Assembly: GCF_030384885.1 (NCBI RefSeq)
Contig: NZ_CP128613.1
DNA from: Escherichia coli
GTDB taxonomy: Bacteria > Pseudomonadota > Gammaproteobacteria > Enterobacterales > Enterobacteriaceae
DNA: 64,000 bases
Reading direction: 5' to 3' (one strand)
A model generated the notes under the pieces. The model worked only from the letters and a program-made list of their open reading frames with translations. It was not told the origin of the DNA and did no database searches. Of this stretch, positions 8,389 through 41,218 are shown piece after piece (the first letter of the stretch is position 1; every line of letters begins with the position of its first letter). Made by a program: the position numbers and the translations under genes.

Positions 8389-9441
8389 TTATTTTTTAGC
8401 AGAACCTGCTTCTAATATTGAAACGATTGAGAACAACGTAAAGCATACCGCTCCCAAACCGACAAGAACCCGCGAAGGAATAAAATATCCCATGTCGGTC
8501 TGCGCCATTTCCGCAAGAAACGATGCCAGGAAAAGGCAAAACAGGCAGGTGAAGACGGGAATCATCGGAATTCTGTTGGCTAACGAACAGGTACGTCTCC
8601 AGACCAGTGCCAGTAGCCAGACTTTTGAGAATATGCTGTAACAGATCATTCCAAGGCAAATGAGAATAATGCCGGGAGCCAGCCGAGCGCTTGCATCGGA
8701 ACTGACTAAGACGTATATGCCCTGCAGCACCGTGATTGAGCCGAGAAAAATAACCCAATAACACCAAAGCCAGTGCTCTTTGGATGAGAACGTATTACGT
8801 GTTTGATGGACGATTGTGGCTACAAGGCCAATGAGACAGGCACAGATTGCGGTTAACCCAAGCAATACGTGACCGGCGACATAATGTGGGGTTATGTCGG
8901 CACTGCGTAACAGCGTTATCGACCAAATGAAACCGAGCAGGGTGAGTAATACGGGAACGGCAATGAGGCAATTACCGATTAATGAAGAATAAGCCTGTGC
9001 CGGTGTTCCGTCGCTTTTGCTCCCCGATGCATTTTTGGGAATGAGCAGAAAGTGACCGGATGACGCTGCCACTGTCGATACACAGGCGGCAATCATACCA
9101 ACGCCGAAAATCACATGACCGGCGACAAACTCGTCTGCCATCACATCATTGCCTGCTAACAGTGCCCAACCCCATATCATGGTGATAATTGACCCCGCAT
9201 AGCCAATAATGGGGAACAGTGTATTGTAAAACGTATTAACGCCGCGCGTGAGCTGCGAAATGATAATAAATGCGGTAGTGAATAATGCCAGGCATATGGC
9301 TGCCAGAGAAATCAGCACATGACCCGCGACGAAATACTCGCTTTGCCCTGAACTTTCCAGCACAAAGCCACCTAACGCGATACAAATTAACCCCATAATC
9401 AAGGGGATTAATTTGAAAAGCCACCCGATATATATGTTCAC
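8389..9441 (-). CDS. yhiM: inner membrane protein YhiM
   Basis: GTG start at 9441 preceded by GAGGAG gives 350 aa; polytopic, with three internal xVAGHV repeats. Confidence 0.8.
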   Translation of the reverse strand: MNIYIGWLFKLIPLIMGLICIALGGFVLESSGQSEYFVAGHVLISLAAICLALFTTAFIIISQLTRGVNTFYNTLFPIIGYAGSIITMIWGWALLAGNDVMADEFVAGHVIFGVGMIAACVSTVAASSGHFLLIPKNASGSKSDGTPAQAYSSLIGNCLIAVPVLLTLLGFIWSITLLRSADITPHYVAGHVLLGLTAICACLIGLVATIVHQTRNTFSSKEHWLWCYWVIFLGSITVLQGIYVLVSSDASARLAPGIILICLGMICYSIFSKVWLLALVWRRTCSLANRIPMIPVFTCLFCLFLASFLAEMAQTDMGYFIPSRVLVGLGAVCFTLFSIVSILEAGSAKK

Positions 9442-9822
9442 TTTAAACTCCTCAGGTATCCCTGCTAATATCGAAATGTGCATTAATGATAATTTCAGCC
9501 TGTTAATAAAATGACGAGATATCATTAAAGACAAATGCATAGCATAACTATAGCTGGGTTTACTTTGCCGAGTGCCACTTTTCAGCGTTCAAAAGGCCAT
9601 GGTAAATAAATATTTATCCTAAGATTAATTCTTATTCTGTAGTTCTTTACAATTATCTTCCAGGGAGGGATTATTTTTCATTATTGGTAAAAGACCGGAT
9701 AGTCTCGGCGTTTAAAATCAGCGAACATATAATTATTATTGTTTTATATCGTCGTAAATATGTCTTTCAGACATGTATCGTTTATTTTGTAACAAACAAT
9801 TCAAAAATATCATAGGTTATTT

Positions 9823-11430: not shown

Positions 11431-11691
11431 AACTCCATGAATACTGTGGTATGTCTTATTAATCCTGAAAGTATTTCATAGGTTTTCTTAATCGATTGTA
11501 GAGGTATGTTCTGATAACGCCTCTACAATCTCTAGGGATTTTTTCTACTTTGAGATAAGAAATTTCATATTATGCCTTAAGGCTGAATGATTTGTGCAAA
11601 ATATAATTGTTTTTCCATCGAACATGAGGTGTATGTCATAAGATTAAATATTAACTACGTATTCCTCGCGGTGAATAGCATGAGGTAAAAA

Positions 11692-25862: not shown

Positions 25863-26590
25863 AACATCCCTCCGTTGATGGAAATAACCTGGCGGGTGAC
25901 GTAACCCGCAATATCAGACATTAAATAGCTGGCAAGCCCGGCAACTTCTTCCGCCTGGCCCATGCGTTTCATGGGGATCATCGACATTGCCTCTTTCAGA
26001 GCGCTCTCTTCCATTTCGATCATCCCGGTATCAATAAGCCCCGGCGCGATGCAGTTGACGGTGATTTTGCGCTTCGCGAGTTCGATAGCCAGTGCTTTTG
26101 TTGCGCCGATAATTCCGGCTTTGGCAGCGCTGTAGTTCACCTGGCCGCGATTGCCCATTACGCCGGAAACCGAGGACAGCGTGATGATGCGTCCACCCTG
26201 GCGTGCGCCGATCATCGGCATAATGCACGGCTGAATGACGTTGTAGAAACTGTCGAGGTTGGTGTGGATCACCGCATCCCAGTCGTCATCGCTTAAAGCC
26301 GGAAAAGCGGCATCGCGGGCGATCCCGGCGTTACTAACCACGCCGTACCAGGCACCGTGTTGCGCGATCTCGTGCTCCAGCACTTCCCGACACTGTTCGC
26401 GGTTTGCGACGTCGAAACTGAGCAAACGCCCGTTACCACCGTTGGCGACAATGGTATTCAGCGTTTCCTGAGCGCCTGTGGCGTCACGGTGATAGTGAAC
26501 GCCAATATTAAAGCCGTCTGCCGCCAGTTGGCAGGCGATGGCGCGACCAATGCCTTTGCTGGCACCAGTAACCAGAACTGAACGACTCAT
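25859..26590 (-). CDS. 3-oxoacyl-ACP reductase, SDR family (tentatively ApeQ-like)
   Basis: 243 aa; TGASKGIGRAIA cofactor-binding motif and YSAAK catalytic YxxxK. Confidence 0.85.
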   Translation of the reverse strand: MSRSVLVTGASKGIGRAIACQLAADGFNIGVHYHRDATGAQETLNTIVANGGNGRLLSFDVANREQCREVLEHEIAQHGAWYGVVSNAGIARDAAFPALSDDDWDAVIHTNLDSFYNVIQPCIMPMIGARQGGRIITLSSVSGVMGNRGQVNYSAAKAGIIGATKALAIELAKRKITVNCIAPGLIDTGMIEMEESALKEAMSMIPMKRMGQAEEVAGLASYLMSDIAGYVTRQVISINGGML

Positions 26591-27054
26591 CAGGACGCTC
26601 CTTGTTGAAACAGGGTGGTAAGTTCTTCCGCGGTCGGCTGGAAGGTGTTAATGCGGCCCGTTGCCTCGCCGTCGTTGATGCTGCACTCAAAACTACCGAA
26701 GCGTTCATCTTGCATCAGCAGTTTGACGGTAATGGTCAGCGTCTGGCCTGCGGGCAGAATGCCAGCGGCGCAAAGCAATTCACGCGCGCCCAGTACCATC
26801 CCTAACTCAATACTGTTTTTGCCCTGCTGGTGGCGATGCCAGCCAGACCAGACGCCGACGGTTTGCGCCATCAGTTCAAGGGCAAACCAGCCAGGGAGAT
26901 TGCCGTCCGGGTCGAGAAACGGTGCCAGTACACCACTGGGCGAAACCGTCACGCGGCACACGGCGCTGTCATCGCTGACGCTCACCACTTCTTCCAGCAG
27001 CAACATGGGCGCATCGTGGGGCAGATAAGCGCCGGGTGATAAATAGTGGCTCAC
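26590..27054 (-). CDS. hotdog-fold 3-hydroxyacyl-ACP dehydratase-like protein (tentatively ApeP-like)
   Basis: 154-aa ORF, 1-nt overlap with the reductase start; size and position fit a FabA/FabZ-like dehydratase. Confidence 0.65.
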   Translation of the reverse strand: MSHYLSPGAYLPHDAPMLLLEEVVSVSDDSAVCRVTVSPSGVLAPFLDPDGNLPGWFALELMAQTVGVWSGWHRHQQGKNSIELGMVLGARELLCAAGILPAGQTLTITVKLLMQDERFGSFECSINDGEATGRINTFQPTAEELTTLFQQGAS

Positions 27055-28229
27055 GAAACCCTCCCGAGCAGAATGCTGGCGTTATTGCCGCCAAAGGCGA
27101 AGGAATTGGACAGGATCACCGGACGTGCCAGCGGCTGTGGTTTTTCGATAATGCCGCACGGTGGCAGCGTGGGATCGCGTGGCGACAGGCTGAAGTCCTG
27201 AGCGGGCAGCGGTAAATCACGCTGTAAGATCAACATACTGATTGCCGCCTCGGTAATGCCCGCCGCGCCCAGCGTGTGTCCGGTCAAATGTTTGGTGGAG
27301 CTGCACGGTACGCGTTCGCCAAACAGGGCGTTAACCACTATTGATTCAATCTGGTCGTTGAGTTGTGTGGCGGTGCCGTGCAGGTTGATATAGCCGACGT
27401 CATCTGGCGTAAGCTGCGCATCGGTCAGCGCCTGGTTAATAGCGCGGATTGCCCCTTCGCCCTGCGGATGCGGGGCCGAAATATGGTAAGCGTCGCTCGA
27501 TTCACCAACGCCCAGTAACGCGATGGGCTGCGGTTCACGGGTCAGCAGCATTAGCCCCGCGCCTTCGCCAATGGTGATGCCCGCACGGTCACGACCAAAC
27601 GGCTGACATAAGGTTGGCGACAGCGATTCGAGGCTGTGAAAACCGTTAATTGGCATCCGGCTCAGGGTGTCTGCGCCACCCACAATGGCGGCATCGACCA
27701 GCCCCGCTTCGATAAGCCTGCGCCCGCTGATCATCGCTCTGGCGCTGGAAGAGCAGGCGGTTGAAAGAGTATATGCCGGGCCGTCGAGCGCCAGCCAGTG
27801 GCTGAGAAAACGCGACGGATCGCCGAGTTCCTGCTGCGCGTAGTGCCATGTGGTGCTTGGCTGCCCGTGGGTGCGCAGGTTAACGTGCGTGTCGCCTTCA
27901 TGCAGGCCGGAGGTGCTGGTGCCAAGCACAATCGCAATGCGCTCGCGGCCATATTTTGCGATGGCGTCATCAACCTGCGGCTGGATCTGCGCCAGCGCCG
28001 CCAGCAGGATCTGATTGTTGCGCGAGCGGTGCGCAGCGAATTTTTCCGGGATAAGCGGAAGCTCGCCATCCACGCCAGCCAGGACCGCCTGCGGATGCCC
28101 CTGCAACCAGCCTGCGCGTGGGCGCATTCCGGGAGCAACACCGCGAGTCAGGTTGGCTGCGATCTCATCAAGATTATTTCCCAGGGCGTTGATCATGCCA
28201 ACGGCGGAAATATAAATCATATTAGTCAC
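27051..28229 (-). CDS. beta-ketoacyl synthase (tentatively ApeO-like)
   Basis: 392 aa; Cys in STACSSS, His motifs LHGTATQ and TGHTLGAAG. Confidence 0.85.
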   Translation of the reverse strand: MTNMIYISAVGMINALGNNLDEIAANLTRGVAPGMRPRAGWLQGHPQAVLAGVDGELPLIPEKFAAHRSRNNQILLAALAQIQPQVDDAIAKYGRERIAIVLGTSTSGLHEGDTHVNLRTHGQPSTTWHYAQQELGDPSRFLSHWLALDGPAYTLSTACSSSARAMISGRRLIEAGLVDAAIVGGADTLSRMPINGFHSLESLSPTLCQPFGRDRAGITIGEGAGLMLLTREPQPIALLGVGESSDAYHISAPHPQGEGAIRAINQALTDAQLTPDDVGYINLHGTATQLNDQIESIVVNALFGERVPCSSTKHLTGHTLGAAGITEAAISMLILQRDLPLPAQDFSLSPRDPTLPPCGIIEKPQPLARPVILSNSFAFGGNNASILLGRVS

Positions 28230-28806
28230 CTAAGTATTGAATGGTGATGTGGTATTTAAAGACATGCTGCTCAATGCTGATTGGCACGCGTTTTCCTTTG
28301 CGATTCAAATAAGTGATTTCCGTGACCAGTTTGCCACTGGCGTTACGCAGTTCGCGTTTGTCACCGTTGTCGCGAAGCGTCCATCCAGCGGGGAGTTGCG
28401 GTTGCCAGGCGCTAATCGGCCAGTGGCTGAGCATCACGTCAGCCAGCACCTGACTTGCTGGCGGCAATTGTGGGACGACGATGGATTGCTCGGCGCGTAG
28501 CCCTTGCGCATCGTAGGTCACCAGAAACAGACGAATGCCGACTGATGACAGTCCGGCAAGGGTGATTTTCTGGTCGTCGGCATTAAGCATCACCAACAGC
28601 GACTGGGTTTTGCCGTTGAAGCTTCCGGTCAACAGTTGCTGGGAATTGACGGCGGGCGATATCCCCGGCGCAGGCAGCGTGATGCGTGTGCCAGGTTGCA
28701 GCCACGCCTGCGGGCGTCCTTCCTGTTCCGGTTGCGAGTGGCTACAGCCGGTGAGGATAAGCGTAGCGGTCAGGGCGAATGCCCGCCAAAAGGTGGGTTT
28801 GATCAT
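28222..28806 (-). CDS. lipoprotein, DUF3261-like (tentatively ApeN-like)
   Basis: 194 aa with signal peptide and lipobox LILTGCSHS. Confidence 0.7.
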   Translation of the reverse strand: MIKPTFWRAFALTATLILTGCSHSQPEQEGRPQAWLQPGTRITLPAPGISPAVNSQQLLTGSFNGKTQSLLVMLNADDQKITLAGLSSVGIRLFLVTYDAQGLRAEQSIVVPQLPPASQVLADVMLSHWPISAWQPQLPAGWTLRDNGDKRELRNASGKLVTEITYLNRKGKRVPISIEQHVFKYHITIQYLGD

Positions 28807-31118
28807 TTTTTTGTTCTCTTTTTATCGGGCATAGCCAGCGGCGAAAGCAGGAAGGCGGTGAAAATACCGCTCACCAGCACAATGCCAAAACTGCTGATGG
28901 CCTGAGTGGCGCTGAATACCAGCATTCCCAGCGTCAGCAAGGTGGTGAGCATTGCCAGCGTGATCGCCAGTAGGGAAGTTAACGGTGTACCGCGCGAATT
29001 ACTGAAAAACAGCGTGTAGTTGATGCCGATGCCAAGCACCAGCACCAGCGCCAGCAGCGAAAAGAGATTCACCGCCTGCCCGCTCATCGCCAGCACTGCC
29101 AGACCGCAGCCCAGCGAAAGCACCGAAGGCACCAGGCTGATAAGCCCTTTGCGCCAGCCGAGGCGGGCCACTGCGCCGCAGGCAATCACTGCCAGCGCCA
29201 CCAGCAACAAACCGGTTAAGACGTGGCGGTAAAGTGCGAACAATTCATCAAAAGTGTTTTTGCGATCAACCCAGGCAATGCCCTGGTAATAGCTGGCTGT
29301 TTCCTGCAACAACGCGCTACTTTTAACCCCTTCAACCGGCACCAGTACGCCGCTTGCGCCGTTTTCCAGCGTCAGCCACAGCAGACGCCAGCCTTCACTG
29401 GCGGGGCTTGCCAGCCATTCATCGACCTTCACTGGCATGGCGTTGAGATCTGGTTTCAGCGCCGTCAGTCCGGCATTTTGCAGCGCTTTTGTTACCGTCG
29501 GGGCAGCCGTTTTCAGCAGATGTAAATCTTCCTCCTGCCGCGCCAGGGAGTTCAGCGGAATAGTGCGGTAGTTGCTGATAAGACGGTCTTTTTTCGCTTT
29601 CTCCAGCGAGGTGGTAAATTTCTCCAGCCGCCGCAATGTTTGCTGTGGCGAATCGCCGTAAACCACAAACCATTTTTGATCGACGCTTTGTCCGGTCAGG
29701 GCGGTAATGGCTTTTTCCTGCGCCAGAATATGCTGCGGCAGCGCCTGTAACTGCGAGATATCGTCATCGACGCGCAGCATTGACATCCCCGCCAGCGAAA
29801 ACAGCGCCAGCGCGACGGGCAGACCCCGCGACAGTTTTTTATTGCGCCGCCACGCCGCCAGCCAGCGCAGCATCAACGCCATCGCCGGAACCGGACGCAC
29901 CGGCAGGCCACGGCACAGCCACGGATGCCAGAACAGAACGGTCAGACAGGAGGCGCTCAACCCGACGGCGGCAAAAATCGCCATCTGGCGAATGCCGGGG
30001 AAGGGGGCGAGCATCATAATCAGATACGCCGCCACGGTGGTGAGCAGCGCCAGTAGCAAGGCATTGCGCACTTTCACCAGGCTTTGCCACGGCGAAACGT
30101 CATTGCCGTGCACCATCCGCTCGGTAAGGTAATAGAGCGTGTAGTCAGCGGAAATGCCGATAACGCTCATGCTCATCACCAGCGTCATCAGGTGTAATTC
30201 ACCGAAAATCAACAAGGTGGCGACCGTTCCCGCCAGCGCGCCAATGCCGATGGAAATCACGCAAAGCAGCAACGGGCGTAAAGAGCGGAACACCGCCACA
30301 ATCAGTAATATCACCCCCAGCAGCGTTGCCACGCCCAGGGTTGAGATATCCTGCTTCGCCTGTTGACTGGCGTAATCGCTGTAAAACACCGTGCCGCGCG
30401 AGAGCAACTGCGCCTGCGGATAACGCGTTTTCAGATCCTTTTCCAGTGTATTCAGGGTGGTGATCAGCTGGTGGGTTTGCTGCATATCAAACGACGATCC
30501 CGCCAGTTCGCCGTGCAGCAGATACCAGTAGTTGCCCTGGGGATCCTGTGTCACCAGCCAGCCGTCCATCAGCCGCAAACGCTGGCCATTTTTCGCCATC
30601 GCCAGCTGCGAGCCGCGCATTAACATCAGCGGATCATTTTGCAGCTCCTTACCGCTTACCCCGGAGAACGCAGAATAAAGCTGGGAGAGGATCCACTGCG
30701 CCTGCGCTTCGCCGCCGTTTTGCAGGCGCGTGCGGGTGTCGGGGTCAATCAGGCCGTTACGATGCTGCCAGAAAAACGCTCCCCACGCTTGCTGGCTGGC
30801 GGCATCCATTGGCCCTTTAACGTCGCCGAGCGCAGCGGATTTTTGCAGCAGCGTCAGCCATTCCTGAGCCACACTGGGATTAGCCTCTTTACCGGGGCTG
30901 ACCAGCCACACCAGTTGGCGGTCCAGACGCTGCATAAAGCCGTCATTCAGCGCCGGGGGAATATCGCCCATCGCCTGTTTGGGTAACATAGCCAGCACGC
31001 TACTGTTCAGTCGTGATTGCGGCAGCAGGATCAGCAACGCCGCCGCCATGACCAGGCAGATGATCACCCATAACAGCGCCGGGCGTTTACTGGGCGGCAA
31101 AACGTTGGCGTTCGTCAT
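28803..31118 (-). CDS. MMPL/RND-superfamily membrane exporter (tentatively ApeM-like)
   Basis: 771 aa with two blocks of TM helices separated by large soluble domains. Confidence 0.8.
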   Translation of the reverse strand: MTNANVLPPSKRPALLWVIICLVMAAALLILLPQSRLNSSVLAMLPKQAMGDIPPALNDGFMQRLDRQLVWLVSPGKEANPSVAQEWLTLLQKSAALGDVKGPMDAASQQAWGAFFWQHRNGLIDPDTRTRLQNGGEAQAQWILSQLYSAFSGVSGKELQNDPLMLMRGSQLAMAKNGQRLRLMDGWLVTQDPQGNYWYLLHGELAGSSFDMQQTHQLITTLNTLEKDLKTRYPQAQLLSRGTVFYSDYASQQAKQDISTLGVATLLGVILLIVAVFRSLRPLLLCVISIGIGALAGTVATLLIFGELHLMTLVMSMSVIGISADYTLYYLTERMVHGNDVSPWQSLVKVRNALLLALLTTVAAYLIMMLAPFPGIRQMAIFAAVGLSASCLTVLFWHPWLCRGLPVRPVPAMALMLRWLAAWRRNKKLSRGLPVALALFSLAGMSMLRVDDDISQLQALPQHILAQEKAITALTGQSVDQKWFVVYGDSPQQTLRRLEKFTTSLEKAKKDRLISNYRTIPLNSLARQEEDLHLLKTAAPTVTKALQNAGLTALKPDLNAMPVKVDEWLASPASEGWRLLWLTLENGASGVLVPVEGVKSSALLQETASYYQGIAWVDRKNTFDELFALYRHVLTGLLLVALAVIACGAVARLGWRKGLISLVPSVLSLGCGLAVLAMSGQAVNLFSLLALVLVLGIGINYTLFFSNSRGTPLTSLLAITLAMLTTLLTLGMLVFSATQAISSFGIVLVSGIFTAFLLSPLAMPDKKRTKK

Positions 31119-31692
31119 CGGTCAGTTGCGCTGGCGTCAGTTGATGTTGGGTAAGAGCGATATCGGTGCGATCGTCCTGTTTATCATTAAGCTGAATGCT
31201 CTCCAGATAGGTTTGCCCGGCGAGATCGATGGTATTGAAAATTTTATCCAGCGGCGTGGTGGTCGGCGTCAGGCGCAGCGTCCAGCGGCCTTCGCCTTTG
31301 TCAGCAAATTCGACGCGGAAGTTTTGTTCCAGCACTTTGCGATCGGCCTGGAACAGCGCGCGCAGCAGGTGGTTAAACTGGAACATCTGCGGGTTATTTT
31401 CTGCCGTGATGATTTGTGGCGGCTGACCGTTGATCACCTGCACCATGCGTTTATCGTCCAGCAATAGCTGCATGGGAAATGGTGAGGTTTGATCCCACAA
31501 TAACCCCTGGTCGCGGGCGATCAACATCTGGCCCTGAGATCGCAGCGGCTGCGGCAGATCTTTAATCGTCCGGGTTTGATCAAAATGGGCGCGGATCACC
31601 GGCTGTTCGGTAAAGCGTTGCTGAAGATCGTCCAGGGTCAGGGCGCTCACAAACGGGCTAATCAGCAGCGCCAGCAGCGGTAAAAATTTCAT
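31087..31692 (-). CDS. LolA-like periplasmic lipoprotein-carrier protein (tentatively ApeL-like)
   Basis: 201 aa with signal peptide MKFLPLLALLISPFVSA; start overlaps the upstream stop (ATGA). Confidence 0.65.
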   Translation of the reverse strand: MKFLPLLALLISPFVSALTLDDLQQRFTEQPVIRAHFDQTRTIKDLPQPLRSQGQMLIARDQGLLWDQTSPFPMQLLLDDKRMVQVINGQPPQIITAENNPQMFQFNHLLRALFQADRKVLEQNFRVEFADKGEGRWTLRLTPTTTPLDKIFNTIDLAGQTYLESIQLNDKQDDRTDIALTQHQLTPAQLTDDERQRFAAQ

Positions 31693-32111
31693 GGTTTGAC
31701 TCCCATGCGTTCAAACAGAATATCGGGGCTGACAAAGCACAGTTCGCGGCTTTGCTCGTCGACCGCGACCTGAATGGTGTATCCGGTGGTGGCGCGTTTG
31801 CCCGTTTCGGCATCGAAAATCTGATAGCCAATTCGCAGGCGGTTTTCGAACTCTTCGATATGCGCACGCACGCGGATGCGTTGCTCAAAGGTGAGGGCGT
31901 GGCGATATTTCACCCGCGCATCGACCACTGGCCACAAATAACCCGACTCTTTCATCTGCCGATAGCCGTAATTGAACTGGTTGAGCAGCGCCTCGCGGGC
32001 CACTTCAAAGTAGCGAAAATAGTTACCGTGCCAGGCCACGCCCATCATATCGACGTCGTGAAATGGAATGATCAGCTCGACTTCAGCGGTAAATCGGGGA
32101 TCGTTAAGCAC
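31689..32111 (-). CDS. hotdog-fold acyl thioesterase, 4HBT/YbgC-like (tentatively ApeK-like)
   Basis: 140 aa; PFHDVDMMGVAWHGNYFRYFE resembles the 4HBT active-site region. Confidence 0.75.
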   Translation of the reverse strand: MLNDPRFTAEVELIIPFHDVDMMGVAWHGNYFRYFEVAREALLNQFNYGYRQMKESGYLWPVVDARVKYRHALTFEQRIRVRAHIEEFENRLRIGYQIFDAETGKRATTGYTIQVAVDEQSRELCFVSPDILFERMGVKP

Positions 32112-32114
32112 CCT

Positions 32115-33791
32115 TTACTCCTTGTCCTGGACTTCCGGCAGTTGCCAGAAATCGAAAAAATTAAACCAGTCGAGGGGCGACTGGAGCGCGTGATGTTCCA
32201 GACGCGCGGCGTAATGATCGATAGCGTTTTGCAGCGCCTGCTGGCGTTCGCCACGCGGCAACAGCAGCGGGTCGGCAAAGGTTTCGCAGTGAATATGCAG
32301 CTTGCCGTGCTGGCGCAGGGCGAAAATCAGATTCACCGGGCAGCGCAAAATAGAGGCGAGAATAAACGGCCCCTGTGGGAAGGGCGCAGGCTGGCCCATA
32401 AACGGACTCCAGCAGACGCGCCAGTCGCCGCCGCGTTGCGGGTTGATGGCGATGCGGTCAGCAACAATCGCCACCCATTCGCCGTTATCCAGCTTCTCTT
32501 TTAGCAGGATGGCGGTGTCCGGGCCGATATCCGTCACCGGGAGCAGGTTGATGCCTGCCTGCGGGGCCATCTCCTGCATTATCTGTTTAAAACGTTGGGC
32601 GTTTTCGCTAAACACCAGCGCGTTAATGGTTTTGTAGCCCTGAATTTTTGCCAGCGCCCGGCACACTTCCACATCGCCAAGATGCGAGGCCAGCAGCAAT
32701 TTGCCGCGCGGATCGCTGACGTTAAGTGCCGCTTCTGCGCCTGGTGCAAACAGCACATCACGCCCGAGTTGCAGCTCGCCGCGCCAACTGGCGATTTTGT
32801 CGAGCATGGCGTTGCCGAAACGTAGAAAGTGCTGATAGCTGTTGAGTTTTGCTGCCTGTGGTTGATGCTGGCGCACACGGGCGAGCCAGTCTTGCGACGC
32901 TTTGCGCGCCCGGCTGGCGGTGAGCCAGTAGACGCCCACCACCGGGTAAAGCAGCGCGGTAAACGCCGTTCTTCCCAGCAGGCGCCAGACCAGCAGCATC
33001 AGGCGCATTCCCCATAATCCTTTCACTTCGCTCTGCCGCGCCCAGTGGCTGGAAGAGTGGCGCATCAGCAGCGAAGGAATACGCGGCAACATGCCGAAAA
33101 ACAGGCGCGTGTGCATGAGCGAGATGCGGACGTTATCTTTCAGGGCATCAAAGTGCGAAAGCCCGTCCAGCGGATAGGTGACGCGAGTCGGCACGAAATA
33201 GCTGGTGTTTCCCTGCCAGTAGAGGCGCACCATCACTTCGGTGTCGAAATCCATCCGCTTGCCGATGGTGGCGTGTTTTGCCAGTTGCAGCGTTGGCGCA
33301 ACCGGATAAACGCGAAAGCCGCACATGCTGTCTTTCAGTTGCAGGGAGAGCGTTTCGATCCACACCCAGACGTGGGTGACCCAGCGCCCGTACAGCCGTG
33401 AGCGGGGGATGGAGTCATCGTAAATTGGCTGGCCGGAGATCAGTGCCGCAGGGTGTTGTTCAGCGAGTGCCAGCAGTTTGGGGATATCTTCAATCGCGTG
33501 CTGACCGTCGGCATCCACCTGTACCGCATGGCTGAACCCCGCGTCTGCCGCTGCCTGTAAGCCGCGCATTACCGCCGCGCCTTTGCCTGCGTTTTCTGCC
33601 AGGCGAATTAATGTCACGCCAGGCTGTTCGGCAACCAGATTATCCAGTTGCTGTTGCGTGGCGGCATCGCTGCCGTCATCCACCACAATACAGGGCAGAT
33701 TAAATGGCTTAAGACGCGCCAGCACGCCCGGCATCATTGCGCCGTGGTTGTAGCAGGGGATCAACACGCAGGGAGAAAAGTTTACCGACAT
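32115..33791 (-). CDS. fused family-2 glycosyltransferase / lipid-A-type acyltransferase (tentatively ApeJ-like)
   Basis: 558 aa; N-terminal VVDDGSD and QVDADGQH GT2 motifs; C-terminal half assigned by family recollection. Confidence 0.7.
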   Translation of the reverse strand: MSVNFSPCVLIPCYNHGAMMPGVLARLKPFNLPCIVVDDGSDAATQQQLDNLVAEQPGVTLIRLAENAGKGAAVMRGLQAAADAGFSHAVQVDADGQHAIEDIPKLLALAEQHPAALISGQPIYDDSIPRSRLYGRWVTHVWVWIETLSLQLKDSMCGFRVYPVAPTLQLAKHATIGKRMDFDTEVMVRLYWQGNTSYFVPTRVTYPLDGLSHFDALKDNVRISLMHTRLFFGMLPRIPSLLMRHSSSHWARQSEVKGLWGMRLMLLVWRLLGRTAFTALLYPVVGVYWLTASRARKASQDWLARVRQHQPQAAKLNSYQHFLRFGNAMLDKIASWRGELQLGRDVLFAPGAEAALNVSDPRGKLLLASHLGDVEVCRALAKIQGYKTINALVFSENAQRFKQIMQEMAPQAGINLLPVTDIGPDTAILLKEKLDNGEWVAIVADRIAINPQRGGDWRVCWSPFMGQPAPFPQGPFILASILRCPVNLIFALRQHGKLHIHCETFADPLLLPRGERQQALQNAIDHYAARLEHHALQSPLDWFNFFDFWQLPEVQDKE

Positions 33792-34165
33792 AGGCGGATC
33801 TTCCCGCTACTGGCGGTGTGGCGGGCGTCACCGTCGTGACGCTGATAACTAAAGCTCAGAATCTGGCGTTCTTCCTGCCAGCTAAGCGTGAGTGTGACGC
33901 GGTTATCCGGCAGCAATGGAGCCTGGAATTTGATGTTCTGAATGGAGTGAAAACGCCAACCGGGCGCGAGCAGGGCAAGCGCGTAACTCATCGCCCAGTC
34001 GATTTGTGCCACGCCGGGGAGTAATGGTTGTACGGCAAAATGACCGCGAAACCAGAACAGATCTGCCCTGAGATGCAAAACAATCTCAAGGTGATTCACT
34101 TGTGCCTGATGGCGCTCGATTTCATGGGGCTTCATGAAATAACTCCTGTAATTGCGCATAGACAC
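33782..34165 (-). CDS. hotdog-fold dehydratase (tentatively ApeI-like)
   Basis: 127 aa with FabZ-like GHFxxxPxxPGV-type motif (RGHFAVQPLLPGV). Confidence 0.65.
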   Translation of the reverse strand: MSMRNYRSYFMKPHEIERHQAQVNHLEIVLHLRADLFWFRGHFAVQPLLPGVAQIDWAMSYALALLAPGWRFHSIQNIKFQAPLLPDNRVTLTLSWQEERQILSFSYQRHDGDARHTASSGKIRLCR

Positions 34166-35483
34166 GCTTGTTCATACTGTTTACTGGCATTTCATCAATA
34201 ACGCGCCAGTAACGCGGAATAGCAACTGGCTCCAGCGTCGGGCGCAGTAATCGCCGCCAGGCCATTTCCTGGCTGTGCCCGCCGCCGTTTTGCCATTGCA
34301 GGCGAGCTTCGTCATCCAGCACCAGCAAAACGCCAATACTCTGACGCCCGCCGCGCGTAACGGGAACTGCCGCCGCCTCGTGAATACCGTCCAGCGCCAG
34401 CAGACGTTGTTCTACTTCCTGGAGTGAAATGCGTTTTTCTTCAATCTTAACGATGCGTCCGCGACGCCCCATCAGATGGAACTGGCCGTCTTCGCTAAAC
34501 TGCAAGATATCGTCGAGTAACAGGCCGCTATCTTCCTCCATCAGAGGTGAAAAGAGACGAAAGGCATCATCTTCGGCCTGGAACTGCATACCTGGAAAGG
34601 GCCGCCAGCGGCGTTGCTCTTGTTCGCGGTAACGCCAGGCGATGACGCCGGTTTCCGTGCTGCCGTAGATTTCATCAGGCCAGACGCGCAGCCAGCTCGC
34701 GGTGTGTTGTACGTCCTGCCACGGTAGTTCACCGCCAGCGGACAGAAGCACCTGAACGGGGGGCGGGGATAGCTGAGCATCCAGACGCTTCAAAAATGCC
34801 GGGCTGCTGATGAAGATATAGCGATGCTGATGACTCAACGCGGCAAACTGTTCGACATACCAGAGCATGGCGGCATGGAGCGGTAATCCCAGCGCCATGG
34901 GCAGGAAAACGCGAAAAGTCAGGCCGTACAAATGCTGCGGCAATACGGAACCGATGACACGACATCCGGCAAGACGTGCGCCTAATCGTTCAGCCAGCAG
35001 TTCTGCTTCACGGTCCAACAAACGAACAGGTTTAATCACCCGCTTCGGCTGCCCTGTGGAACCAGAGGTAAACAGCTCGATATAAGCGTCTGGCGCTATA
35101 GCGGCAAAGGTGAATGATTGTGTCGCGACTTGTGGGGAGCTTGCTACCAACTGCAATGAACCTTGGCAGTTAAGTTCGCTGTCGCTAAGCACACCATCGA
35201 ACAGTTCACGTTGCTCGTTAAGCTGGATGACGCGGTTATGCCCCGGAAGCACCGGTGTTTTTCCGGCGTGTAGCGTGGCGAGCAGGGCAACGATAAACAG
35301 ATAGCAGTCCTCAAAGCACAGCGCCCAGCGTTCACCTGGTTGTTGCTGTAAACGGCAGATAAGTTGCGAGACATCGTGACGCAAATCGCCCAGCGTCCAG
35401 GTGCTTTCGTCCAGCCACGCAATGGGCGTGTCATCAGAGCGTGGCGCAGTCAGCCAGCGTGCAAGCGGTAAGGTCTGCTTCAT
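34122..35483 (-). CDS. AMP-dependent synthetase/ligase (tentatively ApeH-like)
   Basis: AMP-binding motif LFTSGSTGQPKRV; start set at ATG 35483, overlapping the upstream stop (ATGA); ORF-track start 35522 is an alternative. Confidence 0.75.
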   Translation of the reverse strand: MKQTLPLARWLTAPRSDDTPIAWLDESTWTLGDLRHDVSQLICRLQQQPGERWALCFEDCYLFIVALLATLHAGKTPVLPGHNRVIQLNEQRELFDGVLSDSELNCQGSLQLVASSPQVATQSFTFAAIAPDAYIELFTSGSTGQPKRVIKPVRLLDREAELLAERLGARLAGCRVIGSVLPQHLYGLTFRVFLPMALGLPLHAAMLWYVEQFAALSHQHRYIFISSPAFLKRLDAQLSPPPVQVLLSAGGELPWQDVQHTASWLRVWPDEIYGSTETGVIAWRYREQEQRRWRPFPGMQFQAEDDAFRLFSPLMEEDSGLLLDDILQFSEDGQFHLMGRRGRIVKIEEKRISLQEVEQRLLALDGIHEAAAVPVTRGGRQSIGVLLVLDDEARLQWQNGGGHSQEMAWRRLLRPTLEPVAIPRYWRVIDEMPVNSMNKRVYAQLQELFHEAP

Positions 35484-36061
35484 GAGCGATCTCTTTTCAT
35501 CACCTGACGGCGCACCAGCCATTCACCAGCCATTAACGTCCCCATCAACAAATAAGCAATCATGCCGTTCCAGGCAGTCCATAACGACATATCGCCATGC
35601 AGCGCGGTAAAGAGGGCAATTCCGCCGTTGATGATGAAAAAGCCGCACCAGATTTGCGTGACGTGGCGGGTATAGCGCACGCCCTTTTCCGGGAGGTCTG
35701 GCTCCTGCAAACGCGCCAGCCGCTCAACAATTGGCATTGCCGACCACAGCGAACCGCCAAAAACCGCCAGCATTACCGCGTTAACCACTACCGGGTAAAA
35801 CAGCAGTAGCTGGTGCGTTTTCAACAGAAAGCTGGCAACACACAAGGCGATACCCACAACAGCGACGATTTGTGTGACGGCTTGTAGCGGCCCGGCCTGG
35901 CAACGAGTCTGGCGCAGGCGCAATAAAAGCAGCAGCGCCATCAGCGGCAACAGCCAGTGCAGGCCGTTATGTGCCAAACCAAGCCAAATCACAAACGGCC
36001 AGGCGAGCAGCAATAATCCAGTCAGCAGTTTAATAATCGGTAGCGAGCGAATGCCCGACAT
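35480..36061 (-). CDS. integral membrane protein of unknown function (tentatively ApeG-like)
   Basis: 193 aa with about 5 predicted TM helices; in-operon position. Confidence 0.6.
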   Translation of the reverse strand: MSGIRSLPIIKLLTGLLLLAWPFVIWLGLAHNGLHWLLPLMALLLLLRLRQTRCQAGPLQAVTQIVAVVGIALCVASFLLKTHQLLLFYPVVVNAVMLAVFGGSLWSAMPIVERLARLQEPDLPEKGVRYTRHVTQIWCGFFIINGGIALFTALHGDMSLWTAWNGMIAYLLMGTLMAGEWLVRRQVMKRDRS

Positions 36062-36065
36062 CAGA

Positions 36066-36317
36066 TCAGGCTTCTTGTAGCAGGCGTTCTACGGCCTCTA
36101 CGACATCCCGGACTGTACGCACTGCTTTAAACTCTTCCGGCTTGATTTTCTTACCGGTTTTCTTTTGCAGATGCACAATCATGTCAACGGCGTCGATGCT
36201 GTCCAGTTCCAGATCTTCGTACAGGCGCGCTTCAGGTTTGATGTCCTGCGGTTCGATTTCAAACAGCTTAACCAGCAGAGCTGAGACTTCCTGATAGACG
36301 GTTTGTTGTTCTGTCAT
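36066..36317 (-). CDS. acyl carrier protein
   Basis: 83 aa, acidic, with phosphopantetheine attachment motif DLELDSIDAVD. Confidence 0.85.
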   Translation of the reverse strand: MTEQQTVYQEVSALLVKLFEIEPQDIKPEARLYEDLELDSIDAVDMIVHLQKKTGKKIKPEEFKAVRTVRDVVEAVERLLQEA

Positions 36318-36328
36318 GATGGCTTTCC

Positions 36329-36586
36329 TCAGGCACGTTGTGCAGCAATAAAAGAGGCCAGAGTGGCGACAGAGAAAAAGTGCTGACGCATCTCTTCACT
36401 TTCCGCAGAAAGTACAACGCCATATTCATTTTTCACTGCCAGCCCCAGTTCCAGGGCATCGATAGAGTCCAGCCCTAAACCGTCGCCAAACAGTGGCGCG
36501 TCGGTATCGATATCATCAGGAGCCAACTCGTCCAGATTGAGGGTGCTGATGATGAGATTTTTAATTTCCAGATAAAGCGCTTGCAT
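36329..36586 (-). CDS. acyl carrier protein (second, tandem)
   Basis: 85 aa with attachment motif LGLDSIDALE. Confidence 0.85.
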   Translation of the reverse strand: MQALYLEIKNLIISTLNLDELAPDDIDTDAPLFGDGLGLDSIDALELGLAVKNEYGVVLSAESEEMRQHFFSVATLASFIAAQRA

Positions 36587-37382
36587 TATTTATTCCTGAG
36601 AGAGGTAAACAACCTTGTTGTAATTGAAGCAAAAGATGCCGGTTTAACTGCCTTGCTGCTAGCGCCGGTTCTTGTGAAGTTGCATCGTAAAATTTATTGA
36701 TTTCTACCCGCCCACGGACTTCAACCGTAAAAAGTGGCCTGGCAGGTGGAACGTCATACCATTTACTTTGTTTATCCAGCAGATGCTCGCTACAGCCGAT
36801 CGTCACGATGCGTAAATCGCTGGCGCAGCGCACGGCAATATTCGCCGCACCGCGCTGTAACGTCATTTTTTCACCAGGCTTCGTCCGCGTGCCTTCGGGG
36901 AAAATCAAGATAGTGTCGCCCTGTGCCAGTCGCTGTTGGCAACGGGGTAAGAGAGTTTCAGCTTCGCTGTTGATTAAATAATCTGCCGCCCGCACGACGC
37001 CGCCAAGAAAAGGATTTTTTAACAGCGCGCTTTTTACCAGGCAGTCAGTTTCTGGCATGACTGATGCCAGTAGTACGTAATCGATAAGCGTGGGATGATT
37101 AGCTACGACGAGGCAACCGCGTTCCTGACGTAAAATTTCAGCCCCATCAATACGATAATCCAGCACGCCAAGCCCTTTTGCGACTGTTAAAAACAGACGA
37201 AAACTGGCGGCAATGCTGCGACGCGCCAAACGACGGCGGCGGGAAGTGTTCCACACCAAAACTAACAGTACGTTAAACCACACCACAGAGAGTAGTAGTC
37301 CGCCGAGGCCAAACAGGGCAAAACACAACCCGGTCATAACCAGTCGCCATGTCCATTCCAGGCGTGACATCAGCTTACTCAT
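36561..37382 (-). CDS. PlsC-family lysophospholipid acyltransferase (tentatively ApeD-like)
   Basis: 273 aa; N-terminal TM helix, NHPTLID (HxxxxD) and FPEGTR motifs. Confidence 0.75.
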   Translation of the reverse strand: MSKLMSRLEWTWRLVMTGLCFALFGLGGLLLSVVWFNVLLVLVWNTSRRRRLARRSIAASFRLFLTVAKGLGVLDYRIDGAEILRQERGCLVVANHPTLIDYVLLASVMPETDCLVKSALLKNPFLGGVVRAADYLINSEAETLLPRCQQRLAQGDTILIFPEGTRTKPGEKMTLQRGAANIAVRCASDLRIVTIGCSEHLLDKQSKWYDVPPARPLFTVEVRGRVEINKFYDATSQEPALAARQLNRHLLLQLQQGCLPLSGINNASALSGN

Positions 37383-38125
37383 CTACGGCTCCAGCGCCAC
37401 TGTACGCGCTCACCAGGAAGTGAAAAAGCATCTGAATTTTGTAAATAGTGCTGTAAAAACAACATGCTTTGCGGCAGTGTTGTTTCATTGCCCGCAATGG
37501 CTGGCTGTGTTTCACATTGCCACTCATCGCCAGCTTCAATCACCAGCGCAACAGCATATGGCCAGGTCGGCATTTCTGCTGGGAGCTGCGGATGATAGAA
37601 CTCAGGTAGAAAGCCATCAAAATCGACCATCAACACACGCTGGTATCCCGCTTGTAGCAGGCTAAGCACTTCACTCAAACCTTGCTGGAAAGTGTCGCGA
37701 CCAGCCGAAAGCGATGACGAAACGATCGGCTGTTTGGCCGCAATGGTCAGGTTACCCACGGAAGAGTTGTGTACTGAAAGTGCAAAGTCGGTGGGGGAAA
37801 GCGCCTGTTCAGTTGCCAGTGCATGAACAATGCGGTAATTGCGCTCCAGTTCGCCATGACGACTGGTATACAAAACGGCGTCTGGCTGATGGCGGCGTAG
37901 CATTGCCAGGCCGCATTCAACAGCCAGTTTGCTGCCTGAACTGAGGCGGCGGGCGGTCATCATTGGCAGTTCACTTAATTTTGCCAACGGCGCGGCAGGG
38001 TCAATCGCCCACGGCTGGCGCGACCATGCTTGCCATTGCTGCGCTTCGCTAAGTCCAGGCGCCAGTGCCTGCCAGTCGGTAATATTTAATGTAAATTTCA
38101 TCAACGCGCGCCCGCGGTAAACCAA
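37379..38125 (-). CDS. ketosynthase-like protein without the recognisable catalytic triad; chain-length-factor-like partner (tentatively ApeC-like)
   Basis: 248 aa, start overlaps downstream-gene stop; no Cys/His KS motifs found by eye; alternative start at ATG 38101. Confidence 0.55.
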   Translation of the reverse strand: MVYRGRALMKFTLNITDWQALAPGLSEAQQWQAWSRQPWAIDPAAPLAKLSELPMMTARRLSSGSKLAVECGLAMLRRHQPDAVLYTSRHGELERNYRIVHALATEQALSPTDFALSVHNSSVGNLTIAAKQPIVSSSLSAGRDTFQQGLSEVLSLLQAGYQRVLMVDFDGFLPEFYHPQLPAEMPTWPYAVALVIEAGDEWQCETQPAIAGNETTLPQSMLFLQHYLQNSDAFSLPGERVQWRWSRR

Positions 38126-38141
38126 AATTATTAAGTGACGA

Positions 38142-39209
38142 TTATTTCTTTTGGCATATCAAAAGAGTATGCCCAACGCCTAAATTATCGTGGCGCTCTG
38201 CTACCTGAAATCCTGCTTTATTCAGATAGTCGTAAAATTTCTCTGCACTATAGAAACGGCTGTTACCGTTTGCCATGCAGGTGAAATAAAGTGAGGACGC
38301 GTTCAGGCTAAATGATGCTGCTTCAAACCGCTGCGCATCCCAGAACAACTCCATGATGCAAACTTTTGCGCCAGGCTTCATTACGCTGGCGATTTTGCTG
38401 AGTATGCTAATTATTTGTTCGGGTGAAAAACAGTCTAAAAATTGGCTCATCCACCAGATATCAGCCTCGCCCGGTAATGGGGCATCGCTTAGCATATCCA
38501 CCGCATGGAAATCTATGCGATCAGAAAAACCTGCATTCGCGATATTTTCTTTCGCTAGTACGATTTGTTGTGGCAGATCTAATAACGTCACGGCGATGTT
38601 TTCATTGTATTTGCAGCAACGCAAAGCCCACTTACCCGTATTGCCGCCTACATCGTACAATGTTGTGGGGTTGTTGGCGAATACATAAGGCAGTGCGGCG
38701 TTAAATGCGCCATCTGAATAGTAATGATCAAACGCAAACCAGCTTTCACGAGCGGCATCTGGTAATTGTGAAAGTGCGGGATATATCGTCGACCAGTCGC
38801 CAAATACTTTTAACCCGGACGGTTTTCCTTCATTGAGTGAATCGGCGAGGAAGAAGAGCCCCTGATAGCAGACATCCTGGGTGAAATCCATATTCACGCG
38901 AGTCATAGTGTCATGCAGGAGGTAATGACCGATTTTCGCCAGGTAATACATTCCCTCTTTACAGGTAATAATTCGCCCGCTTAAGCCCATATCTAACAGA
39001 ACGCTGGCCGCATATTCGTTGATATGGCTATGTTCGGTGATATCAGCCAGCGTTGCGCCATGTTTGCCTTGCCGATCCAGATATGAAAGTACACCCGCAT
39101 TACGTAGGCAGAGAGCTGTTTGAAAAAGCATGGGGGCAAAGGCAATGCGTTGAGCTTCGGTAATCGCATCCAGTGCGCTAAGAGAATCCTGTTCGTACAT
39201 GTTGGGCAC
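38142..39209 (-). CDS. class I SAM-dependent (O-)methyltransferase (tentatively ApeB-like)
   Basis: 355 aa; glycine-rich SAM-binding motif VGGNTGKWA. Confidence 0.75.
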   Translation of the reverse strand: MPNMYEQDSLSALDAITEAQRIAFAPMLFQTALCLRNAGVLSYLDRQGKHGATLADITEHSHINEYAASVLLDMGLSGRIITCKEGMYYLAKIGHYLLHDTMTRVNMDFTQDVCYQGLFFLADSLNEGKPSGLKVFGDWSTIYPALSQLPDAARESWFAFDHYYSDGAFNAALPYVFANNPTTLYDVGGNTGKWALRCCKYNENIAVTLLDLPQQIVLAKENIANAGFSDRIDFHAVDMLSDAPLPGEADIWWMSQFLDCFSPEQIISILSKIASVMKPGAKVCIMELFWDAQRFEAASFSLNASSLYFTCMANGNSRFYSAEKFYDYLNKAGFQVAERHDNLGVGHTLLICQKK

Positions 39210-39268
39210 AACCTGTTAAGAGGGAATTAAATTATTATCGGACCGAAGCGGCCCGACTTTAGGGGAAA

Positions 39269-39658
39269 TTACAAATCTGCGCCAGCCGACAAATTCAGTT
39301 GAATATCTTTGTCGAGATTGCGGACCCAGCGATTATAGTTTTTATGAATTTGTCCGCCTGATGCTTGCAGGTTCTGACTATTTTCATAATTGATATCGTA
39401 GCTGGATGCCGTGTAGTTAATGCGAATTTCGGCTGAATGATCGCGTGACTGTTGACGTGCTTTAATTACGCCTTGTCCGGCTTCGGACATAATCCATTTG
39501 CGTTCAACGCCAGCTTTCAGAATCGCTTTTTTCACTTGTTCCGGGGTATGACCAGCGCTGACGGTTGAGTGAACCTGATCAATTGGCGCAGTACGCGCGC
39601 AACCCGCTAAAGCACCCACAACAGCAATAGCCGCAAACCATTTCATGTAATGTCTCAT
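39269..39658 (-). CDS. small lipoprotein, first gene of the cluster transcription unit
   Basis: 129 aa; signal peptide with lipobox LAGC; lower GC than the downstream genes. Confidence 0.55.
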   Translation of the reverse strand: MRHYMKWFAAIAVVGALAGCARTAPIDQVHSTVSAGHTPEQVKKAILKAGVERKWIMSEAGQGVIKARQQSRDHSAEIRINYTASSYDINYENSQNLQASGGQIHKNYNRWVRNLDKDIQLNLSAGADL

Positions 39659-40037: not shown

Positions 40038-41087
40038 TTAACCTGGTAACCGACTTTTCGGTCTGCCCGGCCCCAGTAAGATCGCCAGTTTGCTACCGCC
40101 TTTGGTGGTTTCCATCCAGATTTTACACACGCTGGTTAATGGTACCGAAAGTAGCATTCCAACCGGGCCGAGCAGCCATCCCCAAATCAACAATGAAAGA
40201 AATACCACCATGGTGGACATCCCCAGGCGATGGCCCATCATCCGCGGTTCTAAAATATTGCCGATGACCATATGGACAACTAAAAACAATGCGCCGACCA
40301 GAATACATTCGTAAACGCCATTAAACAGCAGCACCTGAATCATTGGCGGTACGGCGGAAATTACCGCGCCGATATTGGGGACGTAGTTAAGCAAAAACGC
40401 CAGTACCGCCCACATCAGCGCAAACTGTACACCCATAAGTTCCAGCCCCAGCCAGACGATAATGCCTGTCCATAAACTTAGCAGTGTCTTCAATGCAAGA
40501 TAGTGCGAAACACCTTTTAAGGCGCGGTGTAGTCCGGCGATGTGAATCTGTGGATTATTCAACGCAAAACGCATTTTGTAAGGGACGTGGCGCACTTCAA
40601 ACAGCATGAAAACTACGGTCATCACCAGCAAAAGCACGCTCGCCATTGCCCCGGAAAGCCCGGTCATTAGCGCCGTGGTGAAGGTAACCACTTTTTCCGA
40701 GTCCATCCGCTGCAGCATTCGCTCCGGCGACATATGCAAATTAAGAAAAGGCAACATCTCCTGCAATTTAAAAAGCTTGCGCGTCAGCTCCTTATTAAAC
40801 TTCGGCAGCATAGAGATAAATTCGTTAAACGAAGCTGCCAGTACACCGACCAGTGCGGTAAGTGCGATCAGCATCACCACCACCACAATCGTAATTGCAA
40901 CGGGGCGTTGTACTCCGCGACGAATAAACCAGGTGACGAGCGGGTTGAGGACGATGGCAAAAAACAGCGCCAGTAACAGTTGCACAATGATATCTGCCGC
41001 TGCGTGAATGCCCGCGAGGATTACTACCAGCGAGGCCAGTTTAAGCAGAATGTGCATGCCCGTTTTATCGGGTTGAGGGGTTTCCAT
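40038..41087 (-). CDS. yhhT: AI-2E family (PerM-like) membrane transporter
   Basis: ATG at 41087 gives 349 aa (METPQPDKTGMHILL...); polytopic. Confidence 0.8.
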   Translation of the reverse strand: METPQPDKTGMHILLKLASLVVILAGIHAAADIIVQLLLALFFAIVLNPLVTWFIRRGVQRPVAITIVVVVMLIALTALVGVLAASFNEFISMLPKFNKELTRKLFKLQEMLPFLNLHMSPERMLQRMDSEKVVTFTTALMTGLSGAMASVLLLVMTVVFMLFEVRHVPYKMRFALNNPQIHIAGLHRALKGVSHYLALKTLLSLWTGIIVWLGLELMGVQFALMWAVLAFLLNYVPNIGAVISAVPPMIQVLLFNGVYECILVGALFLVVHMVIGNILEPRMMGHRLGMSTMVVFLSLLIWGWLLGPVGMLLSVPLTSVCKIWMETTKGGSKLAILLGPGRPKSRLPG

Positions 41088-41218
41088 TGGGGCTTCCTTG
41101 TGACTTTTTGTATTAAGTGTAGCGGGAGTCACGCCAGCAATATTCTGATTCTTACTGCTGATTTTCACGTCAGCACGTGGTAAAAATGAAACACTGTTGT
41201 AAAAATGTGGTGATCCTC

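Follow-up and report, generated by a model that had tools for sequence, protein, structure and literature searches.

Aryl polyene (APE) clusters have been described among the most widespread families of bacterial biosynthetic gene clusters, and in uropathogenic Escherichia coli the APE lipids confer protection from oxidative stress and favour the formation of biofilms. In E. coli CFT073, apeJ (c1194) is the tenth gene of the cluster and has been annotated as a "glycosyltransferase / acyltransferase"; an E. coli delta-apeJ mutant keeps part of its pigmentation and produces late, unattached intermediates (Johnston et al., PMC8253772). The APE lipid of Xenorhabdus doucetiae consists of a glycerol with one saturated and one conjugated C26:5 acyl chain, a phosphate joined to C1 of N-acetylgalactosamine (GalNAc), and an APE whose carboxylate is esterified at the C6 oxymethylene of the GalNAc (preprint 10.1101/2020.12.19.423268). 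According to the same preprint, the GalNAc-1-phosphate anomer is alpha (J 2.8 Hz), the delta-apeJ mutant of X. doucetiae accumulates a diacyl-glycerol-phosphate intermediate (acyl-cFA-glycerol-phosphate), and ApeJ is proposed to add GalNAc first and then to acylate it with the APE bound to ApeE. Here we have analyzed a 64,000-nucleotide (nt) stretch of E. coli DNA (contig NZ_CP128613.1 of assembly GCF_030384885.1; hereafter, the window), in which an initial annotation made from the letters alone had read the open reading frame (ORF) at 32115-33791 as a fused family-2 glycosyltransferase (GT2) and acyltransferase of 558 amino acids (aa).

This ORF is the known gene apeJ of the known APE cluster, an identity that the initial annotation had not recognized and that is given by the synteny of apeA-R and by exact primer matches. 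The gene order in the window is that of apeA-apeR of E. coli CFT073, gene for gene (compared with Table 1 of PMC8253772), and the published quantitative PCR primers for apeJ (c1194, PMC12871727) fall inside the ORF with 0 mismatches, at 32608-32628 on the minus strand and 32481-32500 on the plus strand (0 chance matches expected). The ORF listing of the window places a 558-aa frame with an ATG start at exactly the boundaries read by the initial annotation, and the coding sequence called by the Prokaryotic Genome Annotation Pipeline (PGAP) in the matching E. coli record, WP_106907723.1, has identical coordinates, with the product name given merely as "glycosyltransferase family 2 protein". The upstream apeI and apeJ overlap by 10 nt and apeK starts 3 nt after apeJ, an arrangement typical of an operon. 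At the DNA level, the ORF is 100% identical to the chromosomal gene of E. coli 2013C-4282 (NZ_CP027579.1). apeJ is found in 823 of 5426 complete E. coli genomes, invariably on the chromosome; 822 E. coli records cover 80% or more of it, and 812 are 95-99% identical to the window copy. Besides, more than 100 clusters, obtained by clustering at 50% identity, align with ApeJ end to end. Given the overlap and spacing of the genes, the 822 E. coli records and these end-to-end alignments, the ORF is not a chance frame.

In the N-terminal half, PF00535 (Glycos_transf_2) matches aa 8-131 with an E-value of 1.4e-20 (74.3 bits versus a cut-off of 23.3), and the family-2 motifs pointed out by the initial annotation, VVDDGSD and DADGQH, are both present. 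ApeJ carries the DXD metal-binding motif and the GT-A fold of glycosyltransferase family 2. The top NCBIfam matches were all lipid-phosphate GT2 enzymes, with PpgS (polyprenyl-phospho-GalNAc synthase) first, followed by ArnC, AglJ and PgfS, at scores widely below the equivalog cut-offs (53.7 bits versus 370 for PpgS and 25.2 versus 529 for ArnC). A stand-alone GT2 homolog from Methylobacter gave the same ranking, and a search of PDB sequences with the glycosyltransferase (GT) domain returned matches to DPMS, ArnC and GtrB only. Residues D39, D93, D95, Q97, H98, R132, R136 and R160 are invariant among 41 full-length homologs, down to 30% identity. In DPMS, Asp91 and Gln93 are the residues that bind metal and nucleotide diphosphate; the attack on C1 comes from the lipid phosphate and needs no catalytic base (PMC5526996). 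Regarding the acceptor-phosphate residues of DPMS (Arg117, Arg131 and Ser135), the pairwise alignment is too uncertain to settle their equivalents in ApeJ: in it, Arg117 is paired with Gln121, which is not conserved, and Arg131 sits no more than one residue away from the invariant Arg136. Our claim is limited to Arg132 and Arg136, both invariant, being on the corresponding helix.

The C-terminal half can be placed, through clear homologs, among the LpxL/LpxM/PatA acyltransferases. The initial annotation had proposed a lipid-A-type acyltransferase here, and homolog profiles, predicted fold and catalytic motif all agree with it. Homologs of this half (41-50% identity, E-values from 1e-66 to 1e-84) carry precomputed PF03279 (Lip_A_acyltrans) matches and are named LpxL/LpxP family acyltransferases; the label 'LPLAT superfamily' that JGI gives to homologs is a superfamily-level name. 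In the family alignment, PF03279 is matched by 17 of the 23 members (best E-value 5.6e-12), and when the profile of the C-terminal family was compared with PDB sequences, LpxM from A. baumannii (5kn7) was the sole natural match (E 1.3e-3). Atop this PDB search stood the designed ankyrin repeat proteins (DARPins, E 6e-6), which we rejected as a repeat-summation artefact because each stretch contributes about 9 bits (i-Evalue around 4.5) and the total is summed over repeated designed modules. Their source is a chance likeness of LAAWxG...SHLGNLEV (profile positions 95-145, approximately aa 330-385 of ApeJ) to the ankyrin consensus. Such likeness of the segment LAAWxGd...SHLGNlEvcRaL to designed ankyrin repeats is a trap for automated annotation.

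The family alignment contains an invariant SHLG[N/D]xE block, which is the HX4[D/E] motif of the acyltransferase family. All 41 fused homologs share His370, Asp445 and Arg446; at position 375, 34 of them have Glu and 7 have Asp. By way of the Methylobacter homolog (P0094), His370 of ApeJ aligns with His126 of PatA, and Asp445-Arg446 with the Glu200-Arg pair. In PatA, His126 is the general base acting on the 6-OH of mannose and Glu200 is its charge-relay partner (PMC8519569). A pseudo-enzyme domain was ruled out because the catalytic residues of both domains are invariant in the 41 homologs down to 30% identity.

An AlphaFold2 model of ApeJ, built on a 41-sequence alignment, predicts two domains, each with a different known fold; one unrelated fold spanning the entire protein, which would have contradicted the initial annotation, was not found. 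The mean pLDDT of the model is 90.3, and the sole weak stretch lies around aa 241-260 (blocks of 66 and 60). Using Foldseek against the PDB, PatA ranked highest (E 8e-11, target TM 0.70), ahead of GtrB, ArnC and DPMS, and the C-terminal domain shows the LpxL/LpxM/PatA acyltransferase fold. At the start of this domain, the model has a long, hydrophobic, Arg-rich helix of 36 residues (aa 256-291), with a mean Kyte-Doolittle (KD) value of 1.04, 4 Arg, 0 acidic residues and a best 19-mer of KD 1.37. No segment of the inter-domain region reaches the cut-off of a classical transmembrane helix (KD 1.6) and, since it lies below this value, we term the helix just a probable membrane-association helix. 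PatA and LpxM possess N-terminal membrane helices (PMC8519569); the two modelled helices of ApeJ at aa 216-245 and 256-291 resemble these and the interface helices of DPMS. ApeJ is likely to associate monotopically with the cytoplasmic face of the membrane.

The relationship between the two halves becomes apparent in other APE clusters. In a Methylobacter genome and in Shewanella intestini, the slot of apeJ after apeI is taken by two separate overlapping genes, one for a GT2 of 244-247 aa and one for a Lip_A_acyltrans protein of 303-313 aa. Together, the two Methylobacter proteins tile ApeJ precisely, with aa 8-245 at 51% identity and aa 247-550 at 44%, and its split point coincides with the low-confidence linker of the ApeJ model. 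apeJ is, hence, a fusion of two enzymes that are encoded separately, side by side, in other APE clusters. The fused form is common too, and is present, for instance, in Vibrio fluvialis, Opitutaceae, Paraferrimonas and Anaerobiospirillum. The occurrence of a fusion in some lineages and of neighbouring single genes in others speaks for a consecutive action of the two activities.

Fusion state differs gene by gene among APE clusters. In the Methylobacter cluster, an AMP-binding enzyme and an ApeI-like dehydratase are fused into one protein of 565 aa (L002, 5576-7273) and the GT2 and the acyltransferase are split; E. coli shows the opposite, with ApeH and ApeI separate and ApeJ fused. The architecture of ApeJ is also embedded in longer proteins, P0122 (1185 aa), P0137 (977 aa), P0131 (881 aa) and P0154 (854 aa), with aa 5-553 of ApeJ matching aa 596-1162 of P0122; such proteins could reflect larger fusions that take in further ape genes, or errors in gene calling. 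Besides, a gene for an aromatic ammonia-lyase (PF00221, 514 aa) follows the acyltransferase gene in Methylobacter (L002, 8992-10536) and Shewanella (L003, 8929-10473) and is absent from the E. coli APE cluster, which points to another source of the aryl starter unit.

Taking these data together with the published ones, we consider it probable (roughly 75%) that ApeJ is the 'attachment' enzyme of the pathway, placing GalNAc onto the phosphate of a phosphatidic-acid-type lipid and then the APE onto the 6-OH of this GalNAc. In the first step, the GT2 domain, similar to those of DPMS, ArnC and PpgS, would use a nucleotide sugar (probably UDP-GalNAc) as donor of an N-acetylhexosamine and, with a metal at the DADGQH site, link this sugar through its anomeric carbon to the phosphate group of a membrane lipid. 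Following the Xenorhabdus model, the acceptor would be a 1-acyl-2-(conjugated fatty acyl)-glycerol-3-phosphate made by ApeD and, as in DPMS, such a phosphate would need no catalytic base. In the second step, His370, backed by Asp445 and by Glu375 of the HX4E motif, would act as the general base that deprotonates the 6-OH of the sugar, and the 6-oxygen would attack the thioester of the APE chain carried by the acyl carrier protein (ACP) ApeE to give a 6-O-APE ester, presumably by the same chemistry with which PatA acylates the mannose 6-OH of phosphatidylinositol mannoside. Owing to the fusion, the two steps would stay on a single protein associated with the cytoplasmic face of the membrane, and ApeM, ApeL and ApeN would then export the APE lipid.

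This model fits the published product on both sides: a diester of sugar-1-phosphate and lipid is the product type of DPMS, ArnC and PpgS, with the top family match being a GalNAc enzyme, and a sugar 6-O-ester on a glycerophospholipid glycoside is the product of PatA. The initial annotation had suggested that the acyl chain is attached to a glycosylated or lipid anchor, a proposal that matches the published structure of the APE lipid and the phenotypes of the delta-apeJ mutants. Gene identity, architecture, fold, conservation of the catalytic residues and the fusion/fission relationship are established by the present analysis; the exact donor and acceptor of ApeJ and the order of its steps we infer.

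Several points weigh against this assignment. The pTM of the model is 0.66, so that, with a pLDDT of 90.3, the domains are well defined and their mutual orientation is uncertain. The Pfam search with aa 280-558 and with the whole protein gave no match for the C-terminal half at E-values of 0.1 or lower, E. coli ApeJ itself matching neither PF03279 nor PF01553 (PlsC/LPLAT), and this half was assigned via homologs, profiles and structure because of it; of the domain search on each half that the initial annotation had put forward as a check, the N-terminal part came out as expected with PF00535 and the C-terminal part did not. The only direct sequence link of this half is weak, a match to the NCBIfam model of PatA with an E-value of 7.7e-4 and 18.6 bits versus a cut-off of 209. 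In the searchable literature we found no in vitro activity of ApeJ, and in the literature searched we found no newer biochemistry of ApeJ or peer-reviewed structure of an APE lipid; as for the anchor lipid, the one solved structure is that of Xenorhabdus, from a preprint, with none for E. coli. Finally, the GT domain resembles inverting GT2 enzymes, yet the GalNAc-1-phosphate has been reported as alpha. An inverting transfer from UDP-alpha-GalNAc would be expected to give the beta anomer, and the alpha report does not fit. The acceptor could also be a polyprenyl phosphate, as it is in all the closest characterized relatives. That ApeJ is the first of its clade to glycosylate diacylglycerol phosphate instead of polyprenyl phosphate, with net retention, we hold to be unlikely; such retention might stem from a retaining mechanism, non-canonical for a GT2-like site, or from a polyprenyl-phosphate-GalNAc carrier together with an undiscovered second transferase.

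The latter option, taken as a complete route, is the alternative that survives best, although we give it little credence. In it, the GT domain would make polyprenyl-phosphate-GalNAc and a second inverting transferase would pass the sugar on to the glycerolipid phosphate; while on the carrier, this sugar may be acylated by the fused acyltransferase. The two-step decoration of lipid phosphates of the ArnC/ArnT type is a precedent for it. All the nearest neighbours of ApeJ in sequence and structure use polyprenyl-phosphate acceptors, the top NCBIfam match is a polyprenyl-P-GalNAc synthase, and GT2 enzymes invert (PMC5526996) whereas the product is reported as alpha, an anomer that two inversions would yield. 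Nevertheless, the APE cluster contains no GT-C-like transferase, its only unassigned membrane protein being the 193-aa ApeG, the scores with the PpgS and ArnC models are far under their cut-offs, and the GT domain lacks a transmembrane domain of the GtrB/ArnC kind. The delta-apeJ mutant piles up a phosphatidic-acid-type lipid, which fits the direct use of this acceptor, though it would also be compatible with the carrier.

One could also argue that the C-terminal domain acts like LpxL/LpxM and that the APE of E. coli is anchored on a lipid-A-like glycolipid, not on a glycerophospholipid. Fold and family are those of the secondary acyltransferases of lipid A, Johnston et al. had mentioned that lipid A might serve as the anchor in E. 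coli (PMC8253772), and the structure at hand is that from Xenorhabdus. We find this very improbable, more so than a polyprenyl carrier: the orthologous Xenorhabdus pathway yields a glycerol-phosphate-GalNAc lipid, the cluster encodes a PlsC-type acyltransferase, ApeD, that fits a glycerolipid, and PatA, which acylates the sugar 6-OH of a glycerophospholipid glycoside, is structurally at least as close as LpxM, while an LpxL-type reaction leaves nothing to do for a fused lipid-phosphate GT. Least credible of all is an exchange of acyl roles, in which ApeJ would transfer the conjugated or an ordinary fatty acid and ApeD (or acid released by ApeK plus another enzyme) would attach the APE: the cluster does have two ACPs and two acyltransferases, but ApeD is of the PlsC/LPAAT type (TIGR00530, E 3e-15), suited to the sn-2 position of glycerol, the delta-apeJ intermediate already has both glycerol-bound chains and lacks sugar and APE, and PatA-type enzymes acylate the sugar 6-OH, which is the position of the APE.

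ApeJ is, in the attachment model, the step at which the pigment becomes joined to its anchor in the membrane. Since the gene and its dual annotation are already published, our analysis adds no new biology. What is gained is a set of firm residue targets to separate the two activities (D93/D95 versus H370/D445), the identification of PatA, a sugar 6-O-acyltransferase, as the best mechanistic analogue, and an explicit statement of the problem posed by the anomeric configuration.

Features of apeJ and its surroundings in the window (positions of the whole stretch; DSSP, secondary-structure assignment).
Feature	Position	Strand	Basis or remark
apeJ ORF, 558 aa + stop, bifunctional glycosyltransferase/acyltransferase	32115..33791	minus	ORF, PGAP, primers
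GT2 (GT-A) domain, aa 1-245, including C-terminal amphipathic helix aa 216-245	33057..33791	minus	
VVDDGSD motif, aa 36-42, nucleotide-binding Asp39 invariant	33666..33686	minus	aligns with DPMS VVVDDDS
DADGQH motif, aa 93-98, DXD + Gln, metal/diphosphate site	33498..33515	minus	aligns with DPMS 89-DADLQH-94
Fusion junction/linker, approximately aa 246-255	33027..33056	minus	lowest pLDDT; in Methylobacter, the separate proteins stop at aa 245 and begin at aa 247
LpxL/LpxM/PatA-type acyltransferase domain (assigned through homologs), aa 247-558	32118..33053	minus	
Long hydrophobic Arg-rich helix, aa 256-291, start of acyltransferase domain	32919..33026	minus	DSSP on model
HX4E catalytic motif, His370-Leu-Gly-Asp-Val-Glu375 within SHLGDVEVCR	32667..32684	minus	homolog conservation, PatA alignment
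Asp445-Arg446, predicted charge-relay acid	32454..32459	minus	invariant; aligns with PatA Glu200-Arg
APE cluster, apeA (39269-39658) to apeR (24633-25862)	24633..39658	minus	Pfam of neighbours, PGAP, gene order
apeI	33782-34165	minus	adjoins apeJ upstream
apeK	31689-32111	minus	adjoins apeJ downstream
apeC (longest ORF)	37379-38125		
apeG, 193 aa	35480-36061	minus	
apeH (longest ORF)	34122-35522		
acpT	24044-24631	minus	abuts apeR directly downstream
yhhT (longest ORF)	40038-41168		
Low-GC stretch	8389-13314		
DUF4049 genes, two, tandem	9823-11430 and 11692-13314		in low-GC stretch

Reading from position 39658 downward, the cluster begins with a small lipoprotein-like ORF, an O-methyltransferase, a ketosynthase of the chain-length-factor (CLF) type (PF13723), a PlsC-type acyltransferase and two ACPs. 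These are followed by a small polytopic membrane protein, an AMP-binding enzyme, an ApeI-family dehydratase, apeJ, a 4HBT thioesterase and a LolA-like protein, and the last genes encode an MMPL transporter, a DUF3261 protein, a ketosynthase, an ApeP-family dehydratase, a FabG-type reductase and another ketosynthase. The Pfam domains found in 19 neighbours include ApeI-like, ApeP-like, Ketoacyl-synt_2 (CLF), two ACPs, AMP-binding, LolA, MMPL and DUF3261; the enzyme with the PlsC-type domain PF01553 is ApeD, the one that matches TIGR00530.

ApeG has several strongly hydrophobic segments and no match in Pfam or NCBIfam; it has been labelled 'COG4648 pyrophosphatase', by annotation alone (PMC8253772). 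The starts of the longest ORFs exceed those of PGAP for apeH (466 versus 453 aa), apeI (127 versus 117 aa), apeC (248 versus 240 aa) and yhhT (376 versus 349 aa), and the start of apeJ is identical in both. The whole cluster lies between acpT/nikA and yhhT and is present in the 823 of 5426 complete E. coli genomes mentioned above. acpT encodes a 4'-phosphopantetheinyl transferase, the 'orphan' transferase of this type in K-12, with cognate carrier proteins that in O157:H7 are encoded in this island. Elsewhere in the window, at 8-14 kb, there is a stretch of low GC content (35-42% versus around 55%) that contains yhiM and two tandem paralogous DUF4049 genes; it has no relation to apeJ.

Compared with the ApeJ proteins described in CFT073 and X. 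doucetiae (PMC8253772; 10.1101/2020.12.19.423268), the protein of the window is encoded by the same gene in the same slot between apeI and apeK of apeA-R, with no substantive difference, the window copy being the allele of strain 2013C-4282. The published assignment comes from annotation and mutant phenotype, to which residue-level and fold evidence for the C-terminal half is added here.

With the lipid-phosphate GT2 enzymes (DPMS 5MLZ, ArnC, GtrB and PpgS), ApeJ shares the DAD-x-Q signature, and these enzymes are the nearest neighbours of its GT domain. It differs from them in lacking a transmembrane domain, in its proposed acceptor, a diacylglycerol phosphate instead of a polyprenyl phosphate, and in the reported anomer of its product, opposite to that of an inverting transfer from UDP-alpha-GalNAc.

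Regarding the acyltransferases, LpxL and LpxM form acyloxyacyl esters on lipid A, not sugar 6-O-esters. The domain of E. coli ApeJ falls below every Pfam threshold when compared with this family (PF03279; A. baumannii LpxM, 5KN7/5KNK), and the acceptor of LpxL/LpxM is lipid A, whereas the APE product solved in Xenorhabdus is not lipid A. PatA, the mycobacterial phosphatidylinositol mannoside acyltransferase (5F2T, 5OCE and 7OJT), has around 16% identity to the ApeJ domain. PatA uses palmitoyl-CoA as acyl donor, while ApeJ is proposed to use an ACP-bound aryl polyene; the acid residue is Glu200 in PatA and Asp445 in ApeJ, and PatA, unlike ApeJ, is not fused to a glycosyltransferase.

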